Notes: generated by a model not told the origin, from the sequence alone. A DNA stretch of 20,000 nt from an uncultured Candidatus Sumerlaeota bacterium (GCA_964389675.1 CAYMEV010000019.1:59383-79382), one strand, 5' to 3'. Shown: positions 4,679 through 20,000, numbered from the stretch's first letter. Numbers and translations are program-made.

Positions 4679-4879
4679 TTAACCGCCGTGAAATATATGA
4701 AATACTATTACATTTGCATTATCAGGGACTTTATATGTATCGTAATCCTCCTCAGGGACATAAACATCATTTACCATGACAGTGATCAGTACATATATAT
4801 AATTCATCTCTTTTAAGACATCTGAAACGGTCATCCCCTCTTTCCATTCCAGTTTATCCCTGTTATTTACAATTATCAT
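4679..4879 (-). CDS. thiS: Sulfur carrier protein, ThiS/MoaD family
   Basis: 66-aa ubiquitin-like pattern (M.IVN...TVSDVL...VMVND.YV) with C-terminal GG; ATGA overlap with thiF. Confidence 0.88.
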   Translation of the reverse strand: MIIVNNRDKLEWKEGMTVSDVLKEMNYIYVLITVMVNDVYVPEEDYDTYKVPDNANVIVFHIFHGG

Positions 4880-5484
4880 GCAGATACCCTGTTTATAAGT
4901 ATTTCAACAGCCAGATTAGCCTGCATGGCTGCTACAACAGTGACCCTTGCCGAACAGAGGCCTATGTTCATGTCCGTGGCCTGGTCGCCTACCATATAGA
5001 TGTTCCCGGCTCTGCTTATTCTTATATCTTCCGTTTTTCCTATTCCAGAGATACCGCTGGCGCATATTATCGGGATAGACGGAAAGGCTTTCAGCCATTT
5101 TTCAATAAGCCATTTCTTTGACTCTGCCCTGTCAAAAGCCTCGATCATGATATCAGCTGAGTTAAATGTCTCAGAAATATCATCGGGGCACAGCTTCTTA
5201 TATTTTAATTCAAGGTTTATCTCAGGATTAATATTTTTTATATGGCCTGCAAGCGCTTCGACCTTTATTTTTCCTATATCCTGAAGAAAGAAATGCTGGC
5301 GGTTCAGGTTCGATATCTCAACCCTGTCATAATCTGCAAGGATCAGCTTTCCAATCCCGGCCCTTGCAAGCATGACAGCGACATTTGACCCCAGTCCGCC
5401 GCAACCGGCAATCCCTATGCAGTATTTACCGAGGATCTCAGCACTGCCCGGGACATTCCGCCTGTATATTTCATTATAATCCAT
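4876..5484 (-). CDS. thiF: Sulfur-carrier adenylyltransferase, short ThiF family lacking the Zn-binding CxxC pairs
   Basis: IGIAGCGGLGS nucleotide-binding loop, D.DRVEISNLNRQ, EAFDRAESK and A.MQAN motifs. Confidence 0.9.
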   Translation of the reverse strand: MDYNEIYRRNVPGSAEILGKYCIGIAGCGGLGSNVAVMLARAGIGKLILADYDRVEISNLNRQHFFLQDIGKIKVEALAGHIKNINPEINLELKYKKLCPDDISETFNSADIMIEAFDRAESKKWLIEKWLKAFPSIPIICASGISGIGKTEDIRISRAGNIYMVGDQATDMNIGLCSARVTVVAAMQANLAVEILINRVSA

Positions 5485-5541: not shown

Positions 5542-7542
5542 TTATAAAGCTTTTTTTACGATCTCAACGAGTTCGGGAAGGTCAATCTGGAGCTTTTTCA
5601 GCCTCTCAATAGTCGGGATCCCGTTCATTGTCCACCCTTTACGCTTATAGGCAGCCTCCATGACCTTATCATACTGCTCATAACGGTATTTTCTCAATAT
5701 ATTAAGTTTTTCCTCCACTGATTTACCTTCCGGGTCGACTCCTATAAGCTCTTTAAGCTGTTTATCATACCTTTCGCTTCGCGATTCGTATTCCTCTGGC
5801 GTCACAGGCCCCACAGCCCTCATTGGCGGATAATCGTCCTTCCTGGTCCCGTACCCGAGAAGTATGCAGAGTATTCTCTGAAGGTTATATACCCTTTCAG
5901 ACTGCTCAATCATTTTTGCCTCATCGACCTTTATTCCTGTCATACCTTCAAAGAATTTCCAGTAGTTTTCCACATGCTCCGGTATTTTTGCTGCTACCTG
6001 GGGCGGGTACTTGGTCTTATTATCAGCAGGGGTAATATCATTCCAGACTATCTTGCAAAGCCCCAGAAGGCCGAACCATGTCCTGAAAAGCGGATAGTAA
6101 TAGAGCGCTTCAGCCTTATCCTCAAATGAAGGTATCTGGTTATTGACCATATCCATAAATATCAGCCATGCCTCATCATGCTGAGGGCCTTTCAATGCCA
6201 TGGCATACCCTGCCTGCTGGGCAAGGGATTCCTTTGTGACATACTCGGAAACCTCAAGCCCCTTTACCTCCATTCCTATATCATCCAGGAATTTCCTGTC
6301 AGCTCCGTATTCCTTTTCCCATTTATTCTTCAGGTAACGGATTCCTCTGCCGACATCTACTCCGAAGCCCTCTCCCCTGGCCATTTCATGCAGGCATTCA
6401 AGGGCTTCGTCCTTTGCTCCAAACTTCAGTTCCTTACCGCCTGTATGCTCCTTTGTTATTACGCCTGCTTCATATGCCTCCATCACAAAAGCCATGCAGG
6501 TCGCAAATGATATTGTATCTATTCCGTATGTATCAGCATAGAAATTGTATTCTATGATAAAGGGCAGGTCAAAGCATCCCATATTGGAACCGCCTGCAGC
6601 AGTCTCATACTCCGGGCCGTCCACACAGACTTTCTGCCCCTTGTATGGACCTGTCCGCAGTTCAAAATCATCCACTGTCTTTGCACATGCCATTGAACAG
6701 CCAAGCCAGCATGCATCCGATGCACCCTGAGTAAACCACTCTCTCTGCATGACAAAGGAGCTTATTTTTGCGGTATCCTTATGCTTGCCGAGCCTGTAGT
6801 TCATGACAGGCAGAAGGTCATAAGCATCCATAACATCAACAATGTTTGCTGTACCTACATTCCTCATCCTGCACTGGTCTTTATCCAGCGTTGCCATCTC
6901 AGCATTGACCTTCATGCCCCTGTCTCTGATCATTTTGGCATCCAGCGGTTTATTCAGGTCATCAATTACTTCAATGGCTCCTGTCGGGCAGATATATGCA
7001 CATGATGTACATCCGGTACAGTGAGGGTCTACTTCATTGAAAGGCATTGTGAGATGCCTCTTAATACCTCTGCCGGCATAATCGATAATATCCTGAAGCA
7101 TGAATTCCTTACATGCGCGGACACATCTCCCGCACAATACACATGCTTTCTCATTCTCGTCAGTGAGTTCGCTTTTGTATTTCTCTTTATCTGTAGCGCC
7201 GCATTTTTCTGCAATCAGATTAATAACCGGCACATTCGGAAACCTGCCAAGAAACATCTCTGCAAGGGTTTTGCGGTGTTTTAATACTTTCTCTGAATGG
7301 GTCTCAACGCTTATTTCTTCCCTGACAGGAAAATTACAGGATGTTACAAGCTTTTTTTTGCCTCTCTGCTCAATTTCAACCATGCACAGCCTGCAGGTAC
7401 CGTCCGGTGTCAGATCCTTATGGTGGCAAAGGGTCGGTATATCAATCCCCAATGACTTTATAGCAGTAAGAAGATATGAATCCCTGACAACTTCTACCTT
7501 TTTGCCGTTAATAGTTATTGTTATTTTATTATCAGCCATCAT
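5542..7542 (-). CDS. Fusion: NuoG/HydA-like N-terminal Fe-S domain ([2Fe-2S] + 2x[4Fe-4S]) joined to the C-terminal domains of a W/Mo aldehyde:ferredoxin oxidoreductase
   Basis: aa ~1-195: IPTLCHH..GTCRLCMVE..VTSC, CVLCGRCVRAC, CTGCTSCAYICPTGAI. aa ~200-666: AFOR_C motifs LLPVMNY, CWLGCSMAC, GPEYET, GIDTIS, VKGLE, GLCK, GWTMNGIPT.ERL..L. GGAGGTG RBS; ATGA overlap with the upstream gene. Confidence 0.92.
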   Translation of the reverse strand: MMADNKITITINGKKVEVVRDSYLLTAIKSLGIDIPTLCHHKDLTPDGTCRLCMVEIEQRGKKKLVTSCNFPVREEISVETHSEKVLKHRKTLAEMFLGRFPNVPVINLIAEKCGATDKEKYKSELTDENEKACVLCGRCVRACKEFMLQDIIDYAGRGIKRHLTMPFNEVDPHCTGCTSCAYICPTGAIEVIDDLNKPLDAKMIRDRGMKVNAEMATLDKDQCRMRNVGTANIVDVMDAYDLLPVMNYRLGKHKDTAKISSFVMQREWFTQGASDACWLGCSMACAKTVDDFELRTGPYKGQKVCVDGPEYETAAGGSNMGCFDLPFIIEYNFYADTYGIDTISFATCMAFVMEAYEAGVITKEHTGGKELKFGAKDEALECLHEMARGEGFGVDVGRGIRYLKNKWEKEYGADRKFLDDIGMEVKGLEVSEYVTKESLAQQAGYAMALKGPQHDEAWLIFMDMVNNQIPSFEDKAEALYYYPLFRTWFGLLGLCKIVWNDITPADNKTKYPPQVAAKIPEHVENYWKFFEGMTGIKVDEAKMIEQSERVYNLQRILCILLGYGTRKDDYPPMRAVGPVTPEEYESRSERYDKQLKELIGVDPEGKSVEEKLNILRKYRYEQYDKVMEAAYKRKGWTMNGIPTIERLKKLQIDLPELVEIVKKAL

Positions 7543-10500
7543 TTCACCTCCACTGAATCAAATTTGCAGACTTCATAGCACATGCCGCATTTAATGCATT
7601 TATCCTGATCAATTTTCAGCTTCTTTTCTTCCGGTTCTGAAATTGCCCCTGTCGGACAGACTTTTACACATAATTTGCAGTAAACGCATTTCTCAGTATT
7701 TATACTGTATTTTATGAGATCCTTGCAGACTCCGGCTCTGCACCTCTTCTCCCTTATATGCTCCTCGTATTCATCCCTGAAATACCTGATGGTGCTAAGT
7801 ACGGGATTCGGCGCTGATCCCCCGAGCTGGCACAGGCTGGCAGCCTGGATTGTCTCTGCTGTCTCTTCAAGAAACTCTATATCCCCTTCCCGGCCTTCAC
7901 CATTGCATATCCTTTTCAATGTATTGCTTAAGGCAAATAAGCCTTCCCTGCATGGCGTACATTTTCCGCATGATTCATCAACCAGGAAATCAATGAAATA
8001 ACGGGCGACATCTACCATACATGTCTTATCATCCATGACAACCATGCCTCCGGAACCCATCATGGAACCGGCATCGGTCAGGCTGTCGAAATCTACCTTC
8101 ATATCAAGCATATCAGCAGGGATACATCCGCCTGAAGGGCCTCCTGTCTGAACAGCCTTGAACTGCCTTCCCTCAGGGATACCCCCTCCTATATCGTATA
8201 TTATCTCACGCAGGGTTATACCCATAGGCACCTCGACAAGGCCTATATTGTTAACATTTCCAACCAGTGAAAAGACCTTTGTTCCTGATGAGCCTCCCCA
8301 TGGATTTTCTGAAACATCACCTGAACCGATAGATGCAAACCATTCAGCACCCCTGTCCATTATTACCGGGATATTTGCCCAGGTCTCGACATTGTTGAGG
8401 ACTGTGGGTTTATCCCTGTATCCGTATTCTACATTATGCACATATTTTGCCCTGGGCTCGCCTGCCCTGCCTGCCATGGATGCCATCAGGGCTGAAGATT
8501 CACCACAGACGAAAGCTCCTGCACCGCGGTGTATTGATATCTTAAACGAGAAATCCGTACCAAGTATATTATCACCCAGCAGGCCGTGCTTCTCAGCATC
8601 CAACAGAGCTTTTTCAAGCCTTTCCAGAGCAAGCGGGTATTCTTTCCTTATATAGACATACCCTTCCTTTGCACCGATTGCCTTTGCTCCAATAAGCATG
8701 CCTTCAATGACGGAATGGGGATCTGTCTCGATTATGCTGCGGTCCATAAATGCTCCCGGGTCACCCTCGTCCGCATTGCAGACCAGGTAAGGGGTTTCAT
8801 TCTTCTTTTTTACTACCCTGGCGCAGGACTGCCACTTTATACCTGCAGGGAATCCGCCTCCGCCTCTTCCCCTGATACCCGATGCAATTACATCCTTTAT
8901 TATATCATCCGGCTCCTTTGCAAGGGCCTTTTCAATTCCTTTATATCCTCCGCGCGCAATATAGCTCCTTATGTCTTCAGGGTCAACAAGCCCCTTGTTC
9001 CTCAGGGCTATCAGCTGCTGTTTGCTGAAGAAGGAGATATCATCAATTCTGGCGGCTGTCTTTTTTGAGACAGGATCCTTGTGAAGCAGTCTTTCAACAA
9101 CATTTCCGCCTATAAGATGCTTCTCTATTATCTCGTCTATATCCTTTATCCCAACCTTCTGATAAAAGGTACCTTCAGGCTGAACCACAAGGATGGGGCC
9201 TACGGAGCAGAAACCGTTGCACCCGGTTCCCACAACAAGGTAATCATTTTGCAGATTCTTTTCCTTTATTGCTTCATCAAGCTTGTCCTTAAGCCTCATT
9301 CCGCCTGCAGCGACACAACCTGTTCCTGTGCATACCATAAGCATGGATTTAAACTTGCCAAGCCTTATGTTCTCATCAGAGGATATCTTTTCCAGCTCCC
9401 CCTTCTTAACGGGCCAGTATTCAAGATGCTTAATATCTGTTGATGCTGCAGTACCTGAGGGTTCTGATCCTTCGTGTTTCTTTAGTATCTTTTCAACATC
9501 CTTTGCCTGGACATTGCCGATCACCTCTTCACCTATCTTGACAACAGGCGCTATACTGCATGCTCCAAGGCAGCGCACTCCTTCAAGGCTGTATTTTTTG
9601 TCCTTTGTGGTACCGCCCTCCTTTATTCCGAGGACCCTTTCAAAGGAGCTTAGGATATTCATGGCTCCCTTTACATGGCATGCAGTACCCGTACAGACCT
9701 GAATGACAGTATCCCCCTTAGGTTCAAGGCTGAAGGATTTATAAAAGGTTGCTATATGATACAGCTCTGATTTTGCAGTCCTTGTATATTTATTGAGCAG
9801 GTCAATAGCCGTCTTTGATATATGCCTGAACTGGTCCTGTATCTCCTGCATCATCTCGATCACATAATCTTTGTCCGAGTTGTATTTTTTTATAATTGCC
9901 TCAATCTTATCTATATCGGCCCTGTCTTTCTGGACAGGTATCTTTTTCGGCTGAACAAGCTTTGTCACCTTATTTTCTGCAATCCTCCAGGATGGAGTAA
10001 TATCCCTGTTCTTAACGACTACGGCCTTTATCTTCTTATCACGGAATACTGTGCCTATGCCGCCCCTGCCTGCCTGCTTGTTCCTTGCTACTCCCCTGCG
10101 CCAGTCCCAGAATGAAAAATTAAGGACACCCATATATGCATGCTCTGCACCTTTACCTGCAGAAACGACGGCTATATTCTTCATATCCATTTCATCATCA
10201 GCGTACATATAGGTCAGTTCCTCTGAAACAAGGTGGGAATTGACGCTTTCAAGTGGAGCCTTTTCAATCGTAATTCTTTTTTTGACTGCATCTATAACGA
10301 TAATTACATCGCTTTGTGCTTTCCCTACAATACTTAAGGCATCAAAACCGGCAAACTTGAAATAGGGCCCGAAATACCCGCCAACATTACAGTCCATAAT
10401 ACTGTGAGTAAGAGGGGATATTGTAGTAACTATCGTTTTGCCTGATCCGGGGAATGATGTTGTACCACCAAGCGGGCCTGCAGAAAAGCATATCGGGTTG

Positions 10501-10745
10501 CTGCTGTCAGTCCACTTTGTACCCTCCTTGATCTCCCTGAACATCAGCCACAGGTCAAAACCCTTGCCCCCGACCCACAGGTCTTTCATCTGCTGTGTAA
10601 CCGGATGGATTGTTACTTCATTCTTGTCAAGGTCAACCCTGAGCGTGCGGTCTGCATATCCGCGGTTGATTTCAGCTATCTCAAATTGAAATTCACATAG
10701 GATTTCATGTGCCGATCTCAACTTTTCTATATCTTTTTCCAGCAT
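7539..10745 (-). CDS. Fusion: AOR N-terminal domain + NuoE/HydC + thioredoxin-like [2Fe-2S] + NuoF/HydB (FMN/NADH) + 2x[4Fe-4S]
   Basis: aa ~1-245 AFOR_N (GY..RTLRVDL, GGKG, GPLGGT, SPLT, NVGGYFG, GFDA, AGRGGIG.VF..KKIKAVVV). aa ~280-425 NuoE (ATFY, VCTGTACHVKG, CLGACSIAP). Then VCTGTGC..GCNGFCSVGP, NuoF motifs RGRGGGGFP, NADEGDPGAFMDR, GAGAFVCGE, NNVET, GGPSGG, ESCGKCTPCREG, and two CxxCxxCxxxC ferredoxin motifs. AAGGAGG RBS. Confidence 0.93.
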   Translation of the reverse strand: MLEKDIEKLRSAHEILCEFQFEIAEINRGYADRTLRVDLDKNEVTIHPVTQQMKDLWVGGKGFDLWLMFREIKEGTKWTDSSNPICFSAGPLGGTTSFPGSGKTIVTTISPLTHSIMDCNVGGYFGPYFKFAGFDALSIVGKAQSDVIIVIDAVKKRITIEKAPLESVNSHLVSEELTYMYADDEMDMKNIAVVSAGKGAEHAYMGVLNFSFWDWRRGVARNKQAGRGGIGTVFRDKKIKAVVVKNRDITPSWRIAENKVTKLVQPKKIPVQKDRADIDKIEAIIKKYNSDKDYVIEMMQEIQDQFRHISKTAIDLLNKYTRTAKSELYHIATFYKSFSLEPKGDTVIQVCTGTACHVKGAMNILSSFERVLGIKEGGTTKDKKYSLEGVRCLGACSIAPVVKIGEEVIGNVQAKDVEKILKKHEGSEPSGTAASTDIKHLEYWPVKKGELEKISSDENIRLGKFKSMLMVCTGTGCVAAGGMRLKDKLDEAIKEKNLQNDYLVVGTGCNGFCSVGPILVVQPEGTFYQKVGIKDIDEIIEKHLIGGNVVERLLHKDPVSKKTAARIDDISFFSKQQLIALRNKGLVDPEDIRSYIARGGYKGIEKALAKEPDDIIKDVIASGIRGRGGGGFPAGIKWQSCARVVKKKNETPYLVCNADEGDPGAFMDRSIIETDPHSVIEGMLIGAKAIGAKEGYVYIRKEYPLALERLEKALLDAEKHGLLGDNILGTDFSFKISIHRGAGAFVCGESSALMASMAGRAGEPRAKYVHNVEYGYRDKPTVLNNVETWANIPVIMDRGAEWFASIGSGDVSENPWGGSSGTKVFSLVGNVNNIGLVEVPMGITLREIIYDIGGGIPEGRQFKAVQTGGPSGGCIPADMLDMKVDFDSLTDAGSMMGSGGMVVMDDKTCMVDVARYFIDFLVDESCGKCTPCREGLFALSNTLKRICNGEGREGDIEFLEETAETIQAASLCQLGGSAPNPVLSTIRYFRDEYEEHIREKRCRAGVCKDLIKYSINTEKCVYCKLCVKVCPTGAISEPEEKKLKIDQDKCIKCGMCYEVCKFDSVEVK

Positions 10746-12714: not shown

Positions 12715-13287
12715 CTACTTTTCAAGCCCGAGTTCAACAATCCTCTTTTTCAGCTCTGGATATGCCTTGATAATCTCAGCCCCATCTCCCGATTTATAAT
12801 GTTTCGGGTCAAATCCCGGTGCAACTACCAGGGCAATAAGGCTGAATGCATCTTCAGACCGGTCTGTCGGTATTTCAGCCATCCATGTATTCGGAGGTAC
12901 AATAATTTTTGGAACTTCACCATTTCTGATATCAGGACCCAGTATCCTTTCCTCAAGGTTACCGTCTGGATGAAGAAGTACCATCCTCTGGGATACCCCG
13001 CAGATATAGATAAATATCTCTGTGGAATCTATACTGTGCCAGCCTGCTTTCTCATGCCCTTTAAGCATATGATAAATAACGGAAACAGCATTCCTCTCAT
13101 CTTCCTTTCCTGCATTGAATTCAGAACGGAATGTTTCCCTGAAATGCCCTCCGCAATCAGTCTCCAGCGGCACAAGGCCAAGTATTTCAATAACTTCCTC
13201 TGCTGTTACAGGCTTATCAGGGCCTTCAGAAAAGGAAAAAGATACAGCAAAAATAATAATAATAAAAAATGGAAAGAGCTTTTTCAT
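12715..13287 (-). CDS. Cupin_5 (DUF985-like) protein with N-terminal signal peptide
   Basis: A.EVI..LGL.PL...GGHFRETFRS, S.IYHML, WH.IDSTEIF, LGPDI..GE.P..IVP..TW.A and LVVAPGFD motifs; leader MKKLFPFFIIIIFAVSFSFS; ATGA overlap with the upstream gene and a GGAGG RBS. Confidence 0.88.
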   Translation of the reverse strand: MKKLFPFFIIIIFAVSFSFSEGPDKPVTAEEVIEILGLVPLETDCGGHFRETFRSEFNAGKEDERNAVSVIYHMLKGHEKAGWHSIDSTEIFIYICGVSQRMVLLHPDGNLEERILGPDIRNGEVPKIIVPPNTWMAEIPTDRSEDAFSLIALVVAPGFDPKHYKSGDGAEIIKAYPELKKRIVELGLEK

Positions 13288-15836
13288 TGTTTTCCTCCAA
13301 TAATATTAATTTCTTCGTCAATATCCCTGTCAACGGCAAGAAGCCTTGCAGGCATATCAATACCCTTATTAAAGCCATTTATCACTCCGAGAGAGAGCCT
13401 GAAAAGCTGGCACAATACATCATCAATGATCTCAGCAGGCACACCGTAATAAAGAAAATTTACAGGTGTCAGGTCCCCCAGAAGGAATATATATTTATAG
13501 GGCCTTTCAGCGGATATACCGCTAATACCGGTGGTATCCAGGAAATGCACTGTAATTTTATTCCCCTGTATGGCACCTGTCTGAGAGTCCTTAAACAGCT
13601 CAGAAGAAATGCTGATTTCGGTATTTCCTATCCTGGGGCGGGGATTGTCAAAGAGTGACTGAAGATATTTTGTAAGGTCAGTAAACTCTGATGTCTTTGT
13701 GCTTCCGCTGGCTATAAAAAGATACTGCCTATGGCCATTTACCAGCAGATCTTCAAAAAAATCGCCCTTTAACACTGACCTGCCTGTAACCCCGATAATA
13801 ACATCCGTATTTAAAACCTTATTTTCTGATACTTCCTCAATACATCTGAACTGGTTATCTCCAGGATTCTCAACCTTTATATCAATGCCTGTTACACTTC
13901 CTTCATAGGTTTTCACGCTCAGGCCATTAAAGAGGGCAGAACCAATATTCCCTCTTGAACCAATTATAATTGCATTCCTTTTATAAAATCCCTTACCGAA
14001 GCTGTGCAGTACAGTTTCTACCGCATTTATAATGGATTCAGCACATACCCTGGCTTCACGGTTCTTTGTCTCAGATATGGCTATTGAAAAAACAGGGAAT
14101 GCAAGCCTGCCATGCCTGTTCTCTACTTCTTCAACCTTATCAAATCCGTTCCTTGTATGTTCAATACTGCCGTAAAAAACAGATGACAGCCATTCCTCAA
14201 ACCCTTTTGACTGCTCATCTTTACCGGGTAATTCAGGATAATTGCATTCCTTCAGCACCTCGCCGAGGGTCTTGCCTGAAAGGCAATACTCATTTATCAG
14301 GGGGGAAAGGTATCCGCCATCCTCAATAAGAAGAAGCATCTGATCTTCTTTTTTTGCTTTGAATGCTTCGTCAAAGAACAGGTGAAAACCTGTCATCTGC
14401 ATTGCAGACTTAAAATCCATAATGCTGGACCTGAGCATGCTATCAAGGTATTTCAGCCTGTCTATACTGGAATATTGCCTGGATAGAATATAGTTCCCTT
14501 CTATATAATCCCTTACATCAACCTTCTGAAGTGAATAAAAACGGTAGTTGTCATCAGGCAGTGAGAATAAGGCCTCAAAATATTCATCAGGCACTATTCC
14601 TTTATACTTTATGAAAAGGGTTGTAAGATTTCTGCAGTCAAGCATCTCATAGGATTTTATAAGGCCAAGGATCTGGGATGTAATATGGTGTATAAGCAGG
14701 ATCCTCACATCCTTAAGGCTTTCTTTCCTTGATTTAGCAAGCCTGTAAAGGTTCGGCATCTTCTCGAAGTGCTCTTTGAACCCTGCGGGTCTGCGTTCCC
14801 TGTCAATACTTATATTAAGGCATGATGAATTCCTAGAGACATCAATGTCTATCCAGTGATACCCCTGTATCAGCTGAAATTTCTGTTTCATTGAGATCAG
14901 CTGTATCACCTCCCTGTTCTCAAATAAAAACAGTATCTTCGACAGAATGTCCTTTATCTCCCTGTCCTTATCCAGAAGAAGCAGGTTTATTTCCTCTGAA
15001 AACCAGATAAACTTGATACTGCTCAGGTTCGGCAGGCCTGATGATATAAGGAGGCTGAAAAGCTCCGGGAACCTCCCTGGAGTTTCCTTATACTCCTCAA
15101 GATGGTTTTGTGAAGCATTATGAATACCAAGCAGTATCTGTTCAGCAATTTTATCAATATCATGGAGGTATTGCCTTGTCTCAACCTGGGGAACAGTCCT
15201 GTGGGGTATCCTTTTCAAATAAAGCCTGGAATCCTTTGAGTCCTCGATAGTGATCCTTAAAAACCCCTCTCCCTCAACATATTCTAACAGAAAATAATAC
15301 TCAGCTTCCTTATCCCGGGAAAGGTGAAAGGGAAACATCAGAGCCGGGATCTCTGGAGTTTGGTCTGACCGCTCCTTCTTAAAATATCCGGGAAACAGCA
15401 GGCCACCCCAGCGCGCCCTCTGAAGTGAATCAAAGACTATATGCAGATGATTGTAGAACAGCTCAGGGTGCATCAATATCCTTTTTGAAAGGGACCTCCT
15501 CATATAGAATGATATTGCACTTATGTTCAGCTCATATAATTCCGGCGTCAGCTTCTTATCAACGCTTCTTGACAGGAGCATATCTGTATTCTTCGTCCTG
15601 CAGTATTCAAGTATGTCATTAGCCATGATATGCGTCCATTTTGACAGTCCGGAAAATATATGTATGTTTGCAAGGTTTATAAGTATTAATCCATCTTCCT
15701 GGCTGAGAAAGGGTATCCCCATATTATGCAGCTGTTCTAAAAGCCCTGAAAGGCTCTTTTCTCCCGGACTTTTATCCCCATTTCTCTTTAATTTGCCAAG
15801 CAGTTTGCCGATCGTCTTATCAGATTTATTTCCCAT
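13284..15836 (-). CDS. 850-aa protein: unknown N-terminal ~350 aa plus divergent S-adenosylhomocysteine-hydrolase-like NAD-binding region
   Basis: Colinear AdoHcyase-like motifs LIHHIT, LLIEDGGY, GSIEHTRNG, LAFPVFSIAISETK, IIGSRGNIG, DVIIGVTG, LLGDLTPVNF, GVPAEIID. The ORF is solid; the function is inferred. Confidence 0.65.
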   Translation of the reverse strand: MGNKSDKTIGKLLGKLKRNGDKSPGEKSLSGLLEQLHNMGIPFLSQEDGLILINLANIHIFSGLSKWTHIMANDILEYCRTKNTDMLLSRSVDKKLTPELYELNISAISFYMRRSLSKRILMHPELFYNHLHIVFDSLQRARWGGLLFPGYFKKERSDQTPEIPALMFPFHLSRDKEAEYYFLLEYVEGEGFLRITIEDSKDSRLYLKRIPHRTVPQVETRQYLHDIDKIAEQILLGIHNASQNHLEEYKETPGRFPELFSLLISSGLPNLSSIKFIWFSEEINLLLLDKDREIKDILSKILFLFENREVIQLISMKQKFQLIQGYHWIDIDVSRNSSCLNISIDRERRPAGFKEHFEKMPNLYRLAKSRKESLKDVRILLIHHITSQILGLIKSYEMLDCRNLTTLFIKYKGIVPDEYFEALFSLPDDNYRFYSLQKVDVRDYIEGNYILSRQYSSIDRLKYLDSMLRSSIMDFKSAMQMTGFHLFFDEAFKAKKEDQMLLLIEDGGYLSPLINEYCLSGKTLGEVLKECNYPELPGKDEQSKGFEEWLSSVFYGSIEHTRNGFDKVEEVENRHGRLAFPVFSIAISETKNREARVCAESIINAVETVLHSFGKGFYKRNAIIIGSRGNIGSALFNGLSVKTYEGSVTGIDIKVENPGDNQFRCIEEVSENKVLNTDVIIGVTGRSVLKGDFFEDLLVNGHRQYLFIASGSTKTSEFTDLTKYLQSLFDNPRPRIGNTEISISSELFKDSQTGAIQGNKITVHFLDTTGISGISAERPYKYIFLLGDLTPVNFLYYGVPAEIIDDVLCQLFRLSLGVINGFNKGIDMPARLLAVDRDIDEEINIIGGKQ

Positions 15837-16854
15837 CTCTTTGCTCTCTCATCTTTTTTATGTTCTCCTTCAGCTCTTTGAAGTGTTTTCTCCCGGTTAT
15901 CTTTGAAACCTCGTCTATATTCTCCTTCCTGTTTATAAGTATTTTGAGTTCCTCAACCTCTTTTTTCAAACTCTCCTGCCTTGAATATACCCTTTTTGCC
16001 ATATCCTTAAATATTAATGCAAGCTGTCCTATCTCATCCTTTCTTTCAGATACACTGTCAAGCTCCTGGCTTATCCGGTAATCCCCCCGGGCTATATCCT
16101 CTGCTGATTCAGCAATTGCCACGACAGGGGATGTTATCTTCCTAATAACAAAGCCGGAGGCATACATGCCTGCGGCCATGATAAAGAAACAAAGTATCCC
16201 TATATTATAAAGGTCAAAAACCTCAAAGGCTGCACCAAAATCAAGCCATACCGTTATAAGGCTGACCGCATATGTCAGTATGACAGACGGTATGATAATA
16301 TATGTGACCAGTAGCATATTCCTTGTTGCAATTGTCAGGACAATCTTTTTTGACAATATCAGAAGTACAGGGACCAGAAGTAGTGCAAAGACTGAATTTG
16401 TTATGAAGGCCGGCAATATAAGGGTATATATGGTCTTCATAAACTCAAATCCATAAACCAGGCTGTCAATATAGCTGGAAAGGAATATCGGCCCTGAGCT
16501 TGAAAGGACAATGATAAATATCATGGACTGGTAGTCCTTTATAGTCTTAAATACCCTGTTTCTGAAAAATCCCGGTATCACGCCTATTAATCCATTGCAT
16601 ATGCTCCAGTTCCATGCATAAAGGATATCCAGCCCCTGGAAGGCATAACCAAGCCTGTCCCCTGTAAAACCAACTATAAAACCGGCCAGAGGGCCGTAAA
16701 GAAAGCCGATAAACAGAGGAAGGACGATCTGCGGCCTGAGCTCCACAAAATCAGAACCGGGCAGTATCAGGTATTTTCCTGACAGATAGTTGAAAAATCC
16801 ATAGAAGATCCCGCAGATCAATGATATTAAAATACTTTTTTTAGAAACTTTCAA
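15826..16854 (-). CDS. ECF transporter S-component-like membrane domain fused to HAMP and a C-terminal coiled coil
   Basis: N-terminus ELRPQIVLPLFIGFLYGPLAGFIVGFTGD...WNWSI.NGLIG.IPG (S-component signature), further TM helices, then HAMP (ITSPV..IAESAEDIARGDY...RKDEIGQLA..F..M). TTG start overlaps the minD-like gene. Confidence 0.8.
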   Translation of the reverse strand: MKVSKKSILISLICGIFYGFFNYLSGKYLILPGSDFVELRPQIVLPLFIGFLYGPLAGFIVGFTGDRLGYAFQGLDILYAWNWSICNGLIGVIPGFFRNRVFKTIKDYQSMIFIIVLSSSGPIFLSSYIDSLVYGFEFMKTIYTLILPAFITNSVFALLLVPVLLILSKKIVLTIATRNMLLVTYIIIPSVILTYAVSLITVWLDFGAAFEVFDLYNIGILCFFIMAAGMYASGFVIRKITSPVVAIAESAEDIARGDYRISQELDSVSERKDEIGQLALIFKDMAKRVYSRQESLKKEVEELKILINRKENIDEVSKITGRKHFKELKENIKKMREQRDGK

Positions 16855-17599
16855 TTTTGCTTATTATCTGTTTATATATTTTTGTCAGATCATGATCAGG
16901 ATTCCTGAATGAGAATATGCCCTCGCTTGCAAGCTCCATCATATCATCAGAATGAGGGACAACAGCAAATACCGGGCATCTGTAAGTCTTCTCCACCTTT
17001 TTCATTATATCATCAGTACTGAATTTAAGTGGAGACTTATTTACAATGAGAGCCATTTTCGGGATCTCAAGCTGTCTTGCGATCTCAATGGTGATATCCG
17101 TACCCTGGTAATCCTGGTGGTCAGGCCTGAGTATAATGATCAGCAGGTCTGAAAGAGCTATTACAATGAGTGTATCGTCACTGAGCCCCGGATGCGTGTC
17201 AATGAGAAGATAGTCAAGCTTAAGCTCTGATATGGCATTCTGAAACCCCTCATTCAGCATATTGACATCATAACCTTCATGAAGTACCCTTGTTATATCG
17301 TCAGTATCGACACTGGAGGGTATCAGGAACAACTCGCCTCCGTTCTGGATCTTCAGCCCGTCCTTCATGCTGTATGAAGCCTTCCTGATAGTGCAGTTCC
17401 CCCACAGGTAGTCATTCAGCGAATAGGTAATATTCTGCTTATCCAGTCCGAAAGGTACATGTATGCCGGGAGACTGTATATCTGTATCAACAACCGCCAC
17501 CCTATAGCCATCCCCTGCAAGAAGATAGGCTATATTGGCCGTAGTATTCGTCTTGCCGGTACCTCCCCGAAAGGAATGAATTGAAATAGTCTTACCCAT
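16841..17599 (-). CDS. MinD/ParA-family ATPase
   Basis: Deviant Walker A SFRGGTGKT (Arg in place of the signature Lys), VVDTDIQSPG, DYLLIDTHPG and IVNK. Confidence 0.92.
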   Translation of the reverse strand: MGKTISIHSFRGGTGKTNTTANIAYLLAGDGYRVAVVDTDIQSPGIHVPFGLDKQNITYSLNDYLWGNCTIRKASYSMKDGLKIQNGGELFLIPSSVDTDDITRVLHEGYDVNMLNEGFQNAISELKLDYLLIDTHPGLSDDTLIVIALSDLLIIILRPDHQDYQGTDITIEIARQLEIPKMALIVNKSPLKFSTDDIMKKVEKTYRCPVFAVVPHSDDMMELASEGIFSFRNPDHDLTKIYKQIISKIESF

Positions 17600-18159: not shown

Positions 18160-20000
18160 ATGTTCAAATCCAAACAAATCCAAACAAATCCAAACAAATC
18201 CAAACAATAGTCCTGCTATTGACCCTGCTACTATCTCTAGCTATTTATGCTGATGATTCCAATTTGCATTATCTTATTACAGAAGAAAAGCTAAGAGAAG
18301 GCCAGATTTCTCAAGAGATTAAGGCTCTTTATTCACCATTTCTTCAAATCAGGGCTATCGAAATAAATCCTATTTTATCAATGGAGCAAAGCTTAAAAAA
18401 GGGTGATAAGATAATCATTAATCTGGAAGAAGATAAAGCATATCATGCAACATTAACAAAATTTAGTAAATCTAAGCATGGTTCCATCATTATCGTAGCC
18501 AAAGTGGATAATGCCTTCTATAGCAGATTTATACTAATAACCAATAAAAGCAGTAGCATAGGGATCTTTGAAATTATTGATGAGAATTTTGAAGTATATT
18601 TTTTTAATACCGCACCCTTTGACAACAGGACATACATTATCCAGTACGATCCGAGTGAGGATAATAAATCTATATGTCTGCCTTATGATCCCAGTTTTCT
18701 TTTTGGCAATACAAAGGCTGAAAATGAGAAAAGCCCATTTACTTGCCGGGAAAAATCCAAAGACGATGATCCATATCATCTTGAAATAAACATTTACCCA
18801 CCTGGTTCTGGTTCCTTATACAAATTAAATAATAACAACGGATTATACACGTCAGTCCTTTGTCAAAATGGTTATGATAATTATCATTTGCCTGGGGACA
18901 TTTTGGATTTCTTAGTAACACCAGATAGGATACCTGATTCCGCTGGTGGTTCTGAATCTGTTTTATATAATGAATATAATTTCTTTAAGGAGTGGACCAG
19001 CGGAAACGGCAACGAAATTACCGAAATTATTGAGGTTGACTATTTACAACTGGAAAAGAAAAAACAAAGATACTTTCAATTTCAAATGCCGTCTGAAGAT
19101 TTAGCACTTACTGCGAATTTTATAATTCCTGACCAGTTAAATGTTCCTGATGACACCATTGATCTAATGATTGTTTATACCAGCAAGGCCCAGGACTATA
19201 TAGAGACATTATATAAAAGCGGAATTAATAATTTTATGGATTATTTGATCCAATACCTAAATGAATCCTTATATAGTAGCGCGGTTAATATAAATATAAA
19301 CCTTATACGTCACCGATTAGTCAGCTATGATGAGTCAGAAGACTTTACTGAGAACCTTGATCGCATTATTCATCCAGAAGACGGCTATTTAGATATTGTG
19401 CTGGAAGAGAGGAATATGATTAGCGCAGATCTAGTGGCTTTAATAGTTAGAGATGCACAGCATGAAGAAGATAAAAATGGTTATATACTGGGAAAAGCTG
19501 GTAGCCTGAGAGAGAAGGAGCTCTATCCTGGCTCTTATAGGGGTAATCCGGGTGATGGTGATATTAATACTTATTTTGACTTACAAAATATAAATATTTG
19601 CCGATGGGATAAAATCTATGATATATCACCTGAGAAAGAATTTGTAAGTATAATTTCACTTTGTCATCCCGAGCAGAGTAATCCTTATAATTATCTTCTG
19701 ACATTTACCCATGAAATAGGACATAATCTTGGTGCAGGCCATCATGAAAAGCAGTATAGGCCAGGTCCCCAAATGTACGAAAGACATGATATTCCGGAAT
19801 ATACAGGATATTCAAAGGCATATAATTTAAGAAGGTCCTCGGACGGAAAATATTTTAGAACTGTTATGGCAAGCCAAAGAATAATTATGGGAATTGAACA
19901 TGTACAAATTGGAATGTTTTCCAACCCTGACATAACCATTGGTTTAGGAGCTTATCTGGGAGATTTCTACTCTGATGGAACTGATGCTCATAATAATGCC
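18160..20000 (+). CDS. Secreted reprolysin-like/metzincin zinc metallopeptidase, 5' end frameshifted by a tandem repeat, runs off window end
   Basis: Absent from the ORF track because it has no stop in the window. One frame is open from 18141 to 20000: TIVLLLTLLLSLAIYA|DD signal h-region, then IDLMIVYT..A, ADLVALIV, TFTHEIGHNLGAGH (HExxHxxGxxH, 19710-19742), Met-turn TVMA (19860-19871) and FSNP. ATG 18160 is in another frame and stops at TAG 18208-18210. First in-frame ATG is at 18381. Confidence 0.88.
18165..18207 (+). repeat. Tandem repeat (CAAATCCAAA)x4 plus partial CAA
   Basis: Four perfect 10-bp units at 18165-18204, immediately after the ATG at 18160. Confidence 0.97.

Follow-up and report, generated by a model that had tools for sequence, protein, structure and literature searches.

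A two-gene operon that divides an AOR-family catalytic subunit between Bfu-like proteins in an uncultured Candidatus Sumerlaeota bacterium

We analyzed a stretch of 20,000 nucleotides (nt), here called the window (GCA_964389675.1, CAYMEV010000019.1:59383-79382), from an uncultured Candidatus Sumerlaeota bacterium. Positions 5542-10745, counted from the first letter of the window, carry two adjacent genes. An earlier note, made from the sequence alone, had read them as an aldehyde oxidoreductase (AOR) that is split over two polypeptides and has an electron-bifurcation module inserted in its catalytic subunit. Table 1 lists the features. Both open reading frames (ORFs) are on the minus strand, contain no stops or frameshifts and together fill the interval. 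Scans with Pfam and NCBIfam models agree with the domain content given in the note. AFOR_N, 2Fe-2S_thioredx, Complex1_51K and Fer4 were found in gene 1 and Fer2_4 and AFOR_C in gene 2; Pfam detects no AFOR_C in gene 1 and no AFOR_N in gene 2. The translational coupling described in the note can also be read directly in the sequence. The genes overlap in ATGA, and a GGAGG at 7551-7547 lies 5-9 nt 5' of the start of gene 2. An AAGGAGG is present 5' of the ATG of gene 1. The operon is flanked by a ThiF gene and an ABC exporter, and no ORF for a polyferredoxin was found among the flanking genes examined. The two genes probably form an operon, to which the downstream thiF-like gene probably belongs as a third.

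Table 1. Features of the split AOR locus. Positions refer to the window and residues to the respective product. WOR, tungsten-containing oxidoreductase; aa, amino acids; E, expected value; FMN, flavin mononucleotide; pLDDT, predicted local distance difference test.
Feature	Position	Strand	Description
Gene 1 (product P0001)	7539-10745	minus	intact ORF, 1068 aa; fusion of AOR domain 1 with BfuC-like and BfuB-like parts
AOR/WOR domain 1 (base of pterin site)	9993-10745	minus	residues 1-251; AFOR_N at 33-246, E 5.4e-47, 160.5 bits (far over Pfam cut-off)
Linker from AOR domain 1 to BfuC	9906-9992	minus	residues ~252-280; no Pfam match; AlphaFold2 pLDDT <50 at 250-261
BfuC/NuoE-like thioredoxin-like [2Fe-2S] domain, cluster C1	9477-9905	minus	residues 281-423; PF01257 2Fe-2S_thioredx, E 4.1e-53, 179.6 bits
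BfuB N-terminal [2Fe-2S] domain, cluster B5	9087-9317	minus	residues 477-553; NCBIfam fdxn_Clost, E 6.5e-21; inside the HydB/WorB match at 466-1065
BfuB/NuoF-like FMN/NAD-binding core and B1 [4Fe-4S]	7755-8981	minus	residues 589-997; Complex1_51K 621-793, SLBB 825-873, NADH_4Fe-4S 912-996
BfuB C-terminal 2x[4Fe-4S], B3 and B4, proposed ferredoxin side	7557-7709	minus	residues 1013-1063; two Fer4
Translational coupling	7539-7551	minus	gene 1 TGA 7541-7539 overlaps gene 2 ATG 7542-7540 (ATGA)
Gene 2 (product P0002)	5542-7542	minus	intact ORF, 666 aa; WorA-type BfuA Fe-S domain and AOR domains 2-3
BfuA N-terminal domain, [2Fe-2S] A1 and two [4Fe-4S] (A2, A4)	6970-7530	minus	residues 5-191; Fer2_4 5-83, 2x[4Fe-4S] 130-191
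AOR/WOR domains 2-3, [4Fe-4S] ligands and catalytic residues	5545-6954	minus	residues 197-666; AFOR_C 214-653, E 9.2e-87, 292.1 bits
ThiF-type adenylyltransferase gene	4876-5484	minus	57 nt 3' of gene 2; NF006395 ThiF, 223.8 bits, cut-off 159

The N-terminal part of gene 1 corresponds to a whole domain 1 of an AOR. Residues 32-251 align with residues 6-210 of the AOR from Pyrococcus furiosus (PfAOR; 1aor_A), its best solved relative (E 1e-22). Compared with 1aor_A, the domain keeps the Asn of the motif N.GG (N120) and the motif GRGG (226-229). N120, G226, R227, G228 and G229 are invariant in 37 sequences, including unsplit enzymes. The Arg in the GGRY motif of PfAOR is replaced by Lys in gene 1, as in formaldehyde oxidoreductase (FOR).

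The remainder of gene 1 resembles subunits of the Bfu family of bifurcating enzymes. The best solved relatives of the BfuC part are HydC (8a6t_C, 4e-37) and WorC (9mqx_C, 6.7e-33), both from bifurcating enzymes, whereas complex I subunits reach only ~1e-22. Residues 466-1065 span a full-length BfuB and match HydB (7q4v_B, 2.6e-218), NiFe-HydB (7t2r_B, 1.8e-215) and WorB (9mqx_B, 3.2e-215); the matches to non-bifurcating NuoF and to the beta subunit of formate dehydrogenase (FDH) are 7.2e-107 or weaker. The C-terminal part (881-1065) aligns end-to-end with HydB (E 4.8e-70) with every Cys in register. The match to TIGR01959 (nuoF_fam, 1.6e-136) is under the family cut-off. In 46 sequences the ligands of C1 (C351, C356, C392, C396) and the Cys of B5 (C472, C477, C509, C513), B1, B3 and B4 are all invariant, and the His/Cys stretch between B1 and B3 is kept in gene 1. 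These comparisons argue strongly that the insert is a WorABC-like Bfu core. The single-chain AlphaFold2 model of gene 1 has a mean pLDDT of 82.7; low values occur at 94-101 and in the inter-domain linkers 250-261 and 428-442.

Gene 2 starts with an Fe-S domain that matches WorA best (residues 6-196 with residues 4-189 of 9mqx_A, E 1.4e-40, 36% identity by Foldseek). Its Cys residues C39, C50, C53, C69, C134, C137, C140, C144, C175, C178, C181 and C185 are invariant in 37 sequences, and no His-ligated A3 cluster was found in the domain. The clusters A1 and A2 of BfuA, which are present in gene 2, occur in all Bfu members according to the part of the family description drawn on here (Schut et al. 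2022, PMC9304861).

The AFOR_C match in the rest of gene 2 covers profile positions 8-385 of 385 and scores far over the Pfam cut-off. All four Cys of the AOR [4Fe-4S] cluster are present (C278-x3-C282-x3-C286 and C496) and invariant in the 37 sequences; the counterpart of C496 in 8c0z_A is the Cys of its GxC. The Glu of GPEYE (E311) aligns with the same motif in 1aor_A and H455 with the His of its GGCH; both are equally invariant. We take Glu313 and His448, the catalytic residues of PfAOR, to be their counterparts. The first pterin motif, D337-T-Y-G-I-D342, is present and invariant in the same 37 sequences. The PfAOR structure paper reportedly describes two such pterin-binding motifs, DxxGL(C/D). 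As the earlier note stated, all Cys motifs are thus intact; the cluster Cys align with those of solved relatives. The solved relatives of this AOR part are distant. AorABC of Aromatoleum aromaticum is the best (8c0z_A, 3.2e-22); 1aor_A (1.8e-16) and WorL of Acetomicrobium mobile (6.5e-12) match more weakly, and BamB is the most distant (4.9e-6). 8C0Z and 1AOR align with the window enzyme at the cluster Cys, at the Glu/His pair and in the first pterin motif. Unlike the window enzyme, both have a single-chain catalytic subunit and no Bfu module; the acceptor is ferredoxin for PfAOR and NAD+, via an FAD subunit and a polyferredoxin, for AorABC. The single-chain model of gene 2 has a mean pLDDT of 74.9, with values <50 in the Fe-S part and low values at 276-285 and 494-522.

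The note had placed the break of the AOR at the linker between the N- and C-terminal domains, and the alignments and the unsplit relatives put it at the same coordinates. The AOR part of gene 2 begins to align at about residue 217 of the Clostridium autoethanogenum AOR (9g7j_A) and at residue 240 of 1aor_A. Unsplit relatives read '...KKIKALVVKYSG..N.PAD..RI..' in this region; gene 1 of the window reads '...KKIKAVVVKNRD' there and gene 2 'DDLNKPLDAKMIR'. Because of these alignments and the linker sequence of the unsplit relatives, we assign the break to the linker between domains 1 and 2. The catalytic subunit of AOR and WOR enzymes is normally a single polypeptide; here AFOR_N and AFOR_C are on two chains. 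The genome (3.57 Mb, 58 contigs, 93.8% complete) contains one match to AFOR_N and one to AFOR_C, both at this locus.

A search with domain 1 in a collection of species genomes gave at least 416 relatives confirmed by tblastn among 600 pattern matches listed. The locus counts in the following refer to the best 80 of these relatives (L003-L082). The split is found in 75 of the 80 loci, and in every one of them the parts that occur are arranged as AOR_N - C - B - A' - AOR_C; five loci are unsplit. The arrangement is thus shared with many other genomes. Gene 2 comes next in all 64 split loci in which sequence remains, and the other 11 stop at a contig edge. The first ORF occurs in several forms. 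The complete, window-like N-C-B fusion of at least 990 aa is present in 26 loci, and in 3 more the fusion is cut by the contig end. Shorter fusions of 771-910 aa (6 loci) and ORFs of 685-732 aa (3 loci) also occur. The most frequent form, in 34 loci, stops after the NuoE-like domain (~412-510 aa) and has BfuB as a gene of its own. AOR_N stands alone in 3 loci (262-276 aa). The shorter fusions include L009 and L027, described below, and L014 and L063, which have no B5. A single tblastn alignment to gene 1 runs past the stop after the NuoE-like domain in L012, L036 and L045; their N-C and B genes seem to be in one frame and parted by a stop codon. Fusion and fission in the split family may therefore differ by one codon.

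The family is spread over many lineages. A lineage label from NCBI is missing for 23 of the 80 loci. The remaining 57 carry 16 different phylum labels: Myxococcota (14), Bacillota (10), Krumholzibacteriota (7), Pseudomonadota (5), Cloacimonadota (3) and Chloroflexota (3); Acidobacteriota, Fibrobacterota, Eiseniibacteriota, Elusimicrobiota and Sumerlaeota with two loci each; and Synergistota, Thermodesulfobacteriota, Planctomycetota, Coatesiibacteriota and Bacteroidota with one each. Protein searches gave the same picture. Among the clusters listed for P0001, 116 of 120 (the window's own included) combine PF02730, PF01257 and PF01512 at 54-86% identity. Their names are generic, e.g. 'NAD(P)H-dependent oxidoreductase subunit E' or 'NuoF'. 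Of the 120 clusters listed for the AOR_C part of P0002 (at least 71% identity), 115 carry PF13510 together with PF01314, and AFOR_N is absent from all 120; 'aldehyde ferredoxin oxidoreductase C-terminal domain-containing protein' and '(2Fe-2S)-binding protein' are among their names. The ESM Atlas contains an automatically named cluster of 94 members with the same architecture. In a 50%-identity library 15 of 74 matches to the junction peptide span the whole junction, which indicates a compact family.

A chimeric assembly or a gene in decay is an extremely unlikely explanation of the fusion. The window does come from a metagenome-assembled genome, and contigs of four sequencing runs (X1-X4) were used to check the junctions. 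Window DNA is present in marine-sediment metagenome runs. One such run, the independent X2, has contigs identical to the window that span both the junction between gene 1 and gene 2 (7053-7892) and that between the Fe-S domain and AOR_C (6831-7081), neither with any difference. The AOR_N/NuoE junction (9905-10007) is bridged by a contig of X1 only, which is perhaps the source sample; X2-X4 have a coverage gap there. Two of the junctions are thus bridged by an independent run and the third by X1 alone. However, the same fusion occurs in the 26 complete first ORFs mentioned above, which come from separate assemblies, and in the three cut by contig ends. Within the genus, a further species carries an ORF of 1068 aa with 86% identity to gene 1. 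Its genome is the one of the same genus among 30 relatives compared, the other 29 being related at the domain level, and the lineage of the organism is therefore thinly sampled. The intact ORFs, the retained Cys and the conservation of the split across separate assemblies agree with the view of the earlier note that the locus does not look like decay. A chimera or pseudogene was rejected on the grounds of the conserved split, the junctions bridged by X2 and the intact ORFs.

The note had further proposed that the tungstopterin site forms only when the two chains assemble. We modelled residues 197-666 of P0002 together with residues 1-260 of P0001, each as an alignment of 37 rows, and ran three controls. 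The AOR halves gave ipSAE interface scores of 0.93, 0.93 and 0.92, compared with 0.00 for the best control; the mark used is reached by 58 of 80 solved complexes and by 2 of 110 mismatched pairs. The halves thus associate in the model. At least 89% of the contacts (317-322 per run) agree between runs, and the pLDDT of the partners is at least 88. The modelled interface includes residues 278-284, 336-342 and 490-499 of gene 2 and residues 89-105, 112-124 and 196-231 of gene 1. Among its contacts are those of the cluster loop, of the two pterin motifs and of the GRGG region.

This result bears on the alternative that AFOR_N of gene 1 is a relic or has another role, and that the product of gene 2 is an incomplete or inactive AOR. 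The loops with low values in the single-chain models (276-285 and 494-522 of P0002, 94-101 of P0001) could be taken as a sign of unpaired halves; they are equally expected of interface loops, and they fall in the modelled interface. We consider this alternative very unlikely, given that the cofactor contacts of domain 1 are invariant in 37 sequences including unsplit enzymes, that mean column identity is 75-76% in each AOR half, that all 64 loci with sequence left keep the pairing, and that the complex model separates so clearly from its controls. The conserved cofactor contacts, the sole AFOR_N and AFOR_C of the genome, the constant pairing and the complex model together support the prediction that the two chains rebuild one AOR.

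For the phylogeny of the split a quick IQ-TREE analysis was made from the concatenated AOR parts of 39 rows chosen from loci with complete genes. The tree was rooted on four distant paralogues from the same loci. Single-chain AORs of 591-641 aa lie a few kb away in L011 (12516-14525), L033 (4873-6645), L079 (1426-3297) and L082 (4192-6030); they are 22-30% identical in tblastn pieces and serve here as outgroups. The split forms are one clade with SH-aLRT support of 99, and the unsplit AORs of about 720 aa are placed outside and adjoining it. The split therefore arose once, within the clade of ~720-aa AORs. The identity of these unsplit enzymes (L078-L082, 717-727 aa; metagenome-assembled genomes from Anaerolineae/Chloroflexota, Clostridia and Tepidanaerobacteraceae) is 55-57% with domain 1 and 59-62% with domains 2-3. 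In common with the window they have the C-x3-C-x3-C arrangement, the Gly of the second pterin motif and the linker. They differ in being one polypeptide, have no Bfu genes in the fetched flanks by tblastn, and are uncharacterized. One split locus, L074, is sister to all other split forms with support of 100. Fully fused N-C-B forms are scattered among forms with a separate B, and the latter branch deeper. Judged from this tree, the 1068-aa fusion of the window is a later, derived step. The earlier note had pictured a hydC-hydB-hydA' cassette that landed in-frame in an aor gene. The insert at the linker is confirmed; a single landing is only one of several histories, since a separate BfuB, present in 34 of the 75 split loci, branches deeper and L074 has no BfuC or BfuB. 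The data fit a gain of the Bfu genes in one event as well as a gain after the split.

Among the closest known systems is WorABCSL from A. mobile (PDB 9MQX; Class IV WOR, Type 2 Bfu), in which a tungstopterin AOR-family unit is likewise wired to BfuABC. The N-terminal domain of gene 2 has WorA as its best match, and both are without cluster A3. In the part of the structure paper drawn on here (PMC12318220), WorA without A3 and an electron route S4-A4-A2-A1 are described. The window enzyme has no counterpart of the WorS polyferredoxin or of the zinc finger and adaptor helix of WorA. It consists of two chains instead of five subunits, and the counterpart of WorL is halved, with the halves on different Bfu subunits. 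Between its AOR part and A. mobile WorL the match is weak (19% identity by Foldseek), and the two fall in different WOR clades. The 1:3 ABC:SL nanowire described for WorABCSL cannot form likewise in the window enzyme.

Wor-Bfu is classed as Type 2, with extra subunits, in the part of the Bfu scheme drawn on here, and the FeFe (FeFe-HydABC), Nfn, Fdh and F420 members as Type 1 (PMC9304861). In Type 1 enzymes the catalytic domain directly follows the Fe-S domain of BfuA and is predicted to feed in via A4, and the same arrangement is seen here. There is no Wor among the named Type 1 members of that part of the scheme, and only two of the three catalytic domains of the window enzyme are on BfuA, the third being on the BfuC(-B) chain. 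A 2026 classification of tungsten oxidoreductases recognizes, in the part drawn on here, five classes and takes WorL to be intact in all of them; its Class IV, WorLSABC, has five subunits, with WorS between WorL and WorA (PMC13328260). The window enzyme has neither WorS nor five subunits, so it lies outside Class IV as defined. On this evidence it would nevertheless work like Wor-Bfu.

We consider it fairly probable that the operon encodes an aldehyde:NAD+/ferredoxin oxidoreductase of the Bfu type without WorS, in which the AOR/WOR pyranopterin subunit, most likely with tungsten, is divided between domains 1 and 2 and assembled from two chains. A mechanism can be drawn by homology with the available parts of the accounts of WorABCSL (PMC12318220) and the Bfu scheme (PMC9304861). 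Domain 1 would close over domains 2-3 and so form a buried bis-pterin site between the chains, where the aldehyde would be oxidised at the pterin metal. From the metal, electrons would pass to the AOR [4Fe-4S] cluster (C278, C282, C286, C496), then through A4, A2 and A1 of the fused BfuA to the BfuBC core. There the FMN site would reduce NAD+, and the C1/B3/B4 branch would reduce ferredoxin. The BfuA-AOR fusion would stand in for the polyferredoxin 'wire' of WorS, and the ratio of catalytic site to bifurcating core would be fixed at 1:1.

Several observations weigh against this reading. All of the best 80 loci come from metagenome-assembled genomes. The pass of the complex model may in part be a memory of the fold, because single-chain AORs have already been solved and the pass indicates likeness to them rather than binding. 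By alignment and Foldseek the AOR part is about 20-22% identical to any solved AOR, and an aldehyde is therefore only the presumed substrate. The second pterin motif reads G-L-L-G-L-C496, with Gly in place of the Asp of AorB (8c0z_A), presumably the counterpart of D489 in PfAOR. The first two cluster Cys are spaced C-x3-C, with one extra residue compared with C-x2-C in 1aor_A and 8c0z_A. Both deviations are common to the whole clade including the unsplit enzymes and are therefore not a decay linked to the split. Furthermore, some family members are reduced. L009 (2396-4762) and L027 (7001-9316) are without B5 and B3/B4 and keep only the N-terminal half of NuoE. L050 (7001-9142), the only one scanned of the 685-732 aa group, keeps NuoE and NADH_4Fe-4S and has no match to Complex1_51K, the FMN domain. 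These three look, from their sequences, like natural non-bifurcating derivatives. L074, from a metagenome-assembled genome of Coatesiibacteriota (6971-9756), has an AOR_N gene of 264 aa and, after a gap of 8 nt, a gene of 660 aa for a BfuA-type Fe-S domain and AFOR_C; tblastn finds no NuoE or NuoF homologue in its 7-kb flanks. It is either an intermediate from before the Bfu genes or a case of secondary loss. The Bfu clusters missing in these four loci imply that the split itself needs no bifurcation. Finally, for WOR1 only the joint reduction of ferredoxin and NAD+ has been reported, with no endergonic step demonstrated, according to the part of a review drawn on here (PMC12096430).

The last points lead to a different view of the same assembly, namely that this aldehyde oxidoreductase is simply linked to NAD(H), or separately to ferredoxin. 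Its NuoEF-like part would then serve as an NAD+ reductase, much as the FAD subunit does in AorABC, and coupling would not be obligate. With a potential of about -560 mV, listed in a table of PMC9304861, aldehyde oxidation suffices to reduce NAD+ and ferredoxin uncoupled; the caveat on WOR1 applies here too, and L009 and L027 manage without the ferredoxin-side clusters. The window protein, however, keeps all Bfu-specific parts, namely the clusters B5, B3/B4 and C1 together with the His/Cys segment from B1 to B3, and in the comparisons given above it is much closer to bifurcating BfuB and BfuC than to complex I or NAD-linked FDH. An uncoupled enzyme is thus unlikely, and bifurcation is the function we would expect.

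It is rather unlikely that the pterin site of this architecture handles a substrate other than a simple aldehyde, such as glyceraldehyde-3-phosphate (GAP) or a sulfonate, or catalyses a reduction as BamB does, perhaps with a module that works as a confurcating one. The known WORs do include sulfonate- and GAP-oxidising as well as ring-reducing members in the part of the classification drawn on here (PMC13328260). The AOR clade of the window has no characterized or solved member, and the best solved relative of domains 2-3 is only ~21% identical. Such a substrate would also suit the Gly that the clade has in its second pterin motif and the ~75 residues by which the AOR part is longer than PfAOR. 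Among the neighbourhoods compared in 76 loci, no conserved catabolic gene adjoins the operon and points to a substrate; only cofactor and transport genes were found. On the other hand, E311 and H455 are invariant and align with the Glu/His pair of aldehyde-oxidising AORs, and BamB is the most distant of the solved relatives. Oxidation of an aldehyde is therefore still the reaction we favour.

The cluster domain of BfuC moves during bifurcation. If the bis-pterin site is spread over two chains, each of its sides would be hard-wired to another arm of the core, domain 1 to BfuC(-B) and domains 2-3 to BfuA, and the parts would be linked in a circle, A - B - C - AOR_N :: AOR_C - A. AOR closure or cofactor insertion could then gate assembly, or catalysis could be mechanically coupled to BfuC. 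Such a self-contained, wire-less 1:1 bifurcating tungsten enzyme would be a major unrecognised route of aldehyde oxidation in uncultured anaerobes of sediments and digesters, in more than 12 phyla. We regard this extended proposal as doubtful.

We conclude that the feature is real, conserved and widespread and that it is a new architectural variant of the Wor/Bfu-type enzyme. The function is assigned with moderate confidence, and the activity, metal and substrate would follow from homology. The statement of the earlier note that the architecture is not known from any characterized enzyme agrees with the parts of the literature drawn on here. The words 'split' and 'fusion' are absent from the main text of PMC13328260, in which 'fused' occurs once, of ModBC; 'fused', 'fusion' and 'split' are likewise absent from the main text of PMC9304861. 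The part of the WorABCSL structure paper drawn on here (PMC12318220) contains no split AOR form. Neither a split AOR nor an AOR-Bfu fusion was found in the parts drawn on of the literature including PMC12096430, PMC3971608 and PMC6147048, whose supplementary tables may list such proteins unremarked.

Structural work on AOR-family enzymes and on bifurcating enzymes of the Bfu type is currently active. A family with a large subunit cut at a domain boundary and with its halves on BfuC(-B) and BfuA would add a class to the scheme of tungsten oxidoreductases. It would also add a Wor member to the Bfu type that has its catalytic domain on BfuA. If our reading is true, a deeply buried pterin site can form between chains, and the 1:1 fusion without a polyferredoxin wire would be a compact system for the feed of a third substrate into the flavin-cluster bifurcation site. 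The natural series of unsplit forms, split forms without Bfu, split forms with a separate B, full fusions and reduced forms with no ferredoxin branch offers a ready comparison of the Bfu parts. The carriers are mostly uncultured sediment fermenters and syntrophs, so the enzyme may matter for the balance of NADH and ferredoxin in anoxic carbon turnover.

The neighbouring genes fit an organism that makes and uses a tungsten or molybdenum pterin enzyme; tungsten would be our choice between the two. Of the 76 loci compared, the window among them, 25 have a ThiF-like gene 3' of gene 2; this gene is a probable partner in cofactor maturation. A worX/thiF neighbourhood of WOR genes is known from the part of PMC13328260 drawn on here. 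In the same 76 loci, genes adjoining the operon encode WtpA (9), WtpB (5), a WtpC-like ATPase (12), MoeA (5) and MobB (5). WtpA beside the operon scores over its cut-off (356 bits compared with 355; 302.4 compared with 242.75); the WtpC-like ATPase of neighbouring loci is under the equivalog cut-off. The window's own contig carries WtpA, MoaC and two MoeA 19-28 kb before the window (C19:31070-40057), and this WtpA is over the cut-off once its two pieces are summed. With Rfam at gathering thresholds there was no match in the window, including no Moco/Wco riboswitch 5' of gene 1. A scan for promoter and terminator consensus sequences gave 25 weak matches compared with 14.4 expected, and no conclusion is drawn from them.

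Elsewhere in the window, three overlapping genes on the minus strand (13284-17599) form an apparent operon. Their products are an ATPase resembling ParA/MinD (16841-17599), a membrane protein in which an ECF-S-like region is combined with HAMP (15826-16854), and a protein of 850 aa (13284-15836) with no Pfam match at E <= 0.001. On the plus strand an ORF starts at 18219 and runs past the end of the window (18219-20000); after a long N-terminal part without matches it contains a reprolysin-like (M12B) metallopeptidase region.

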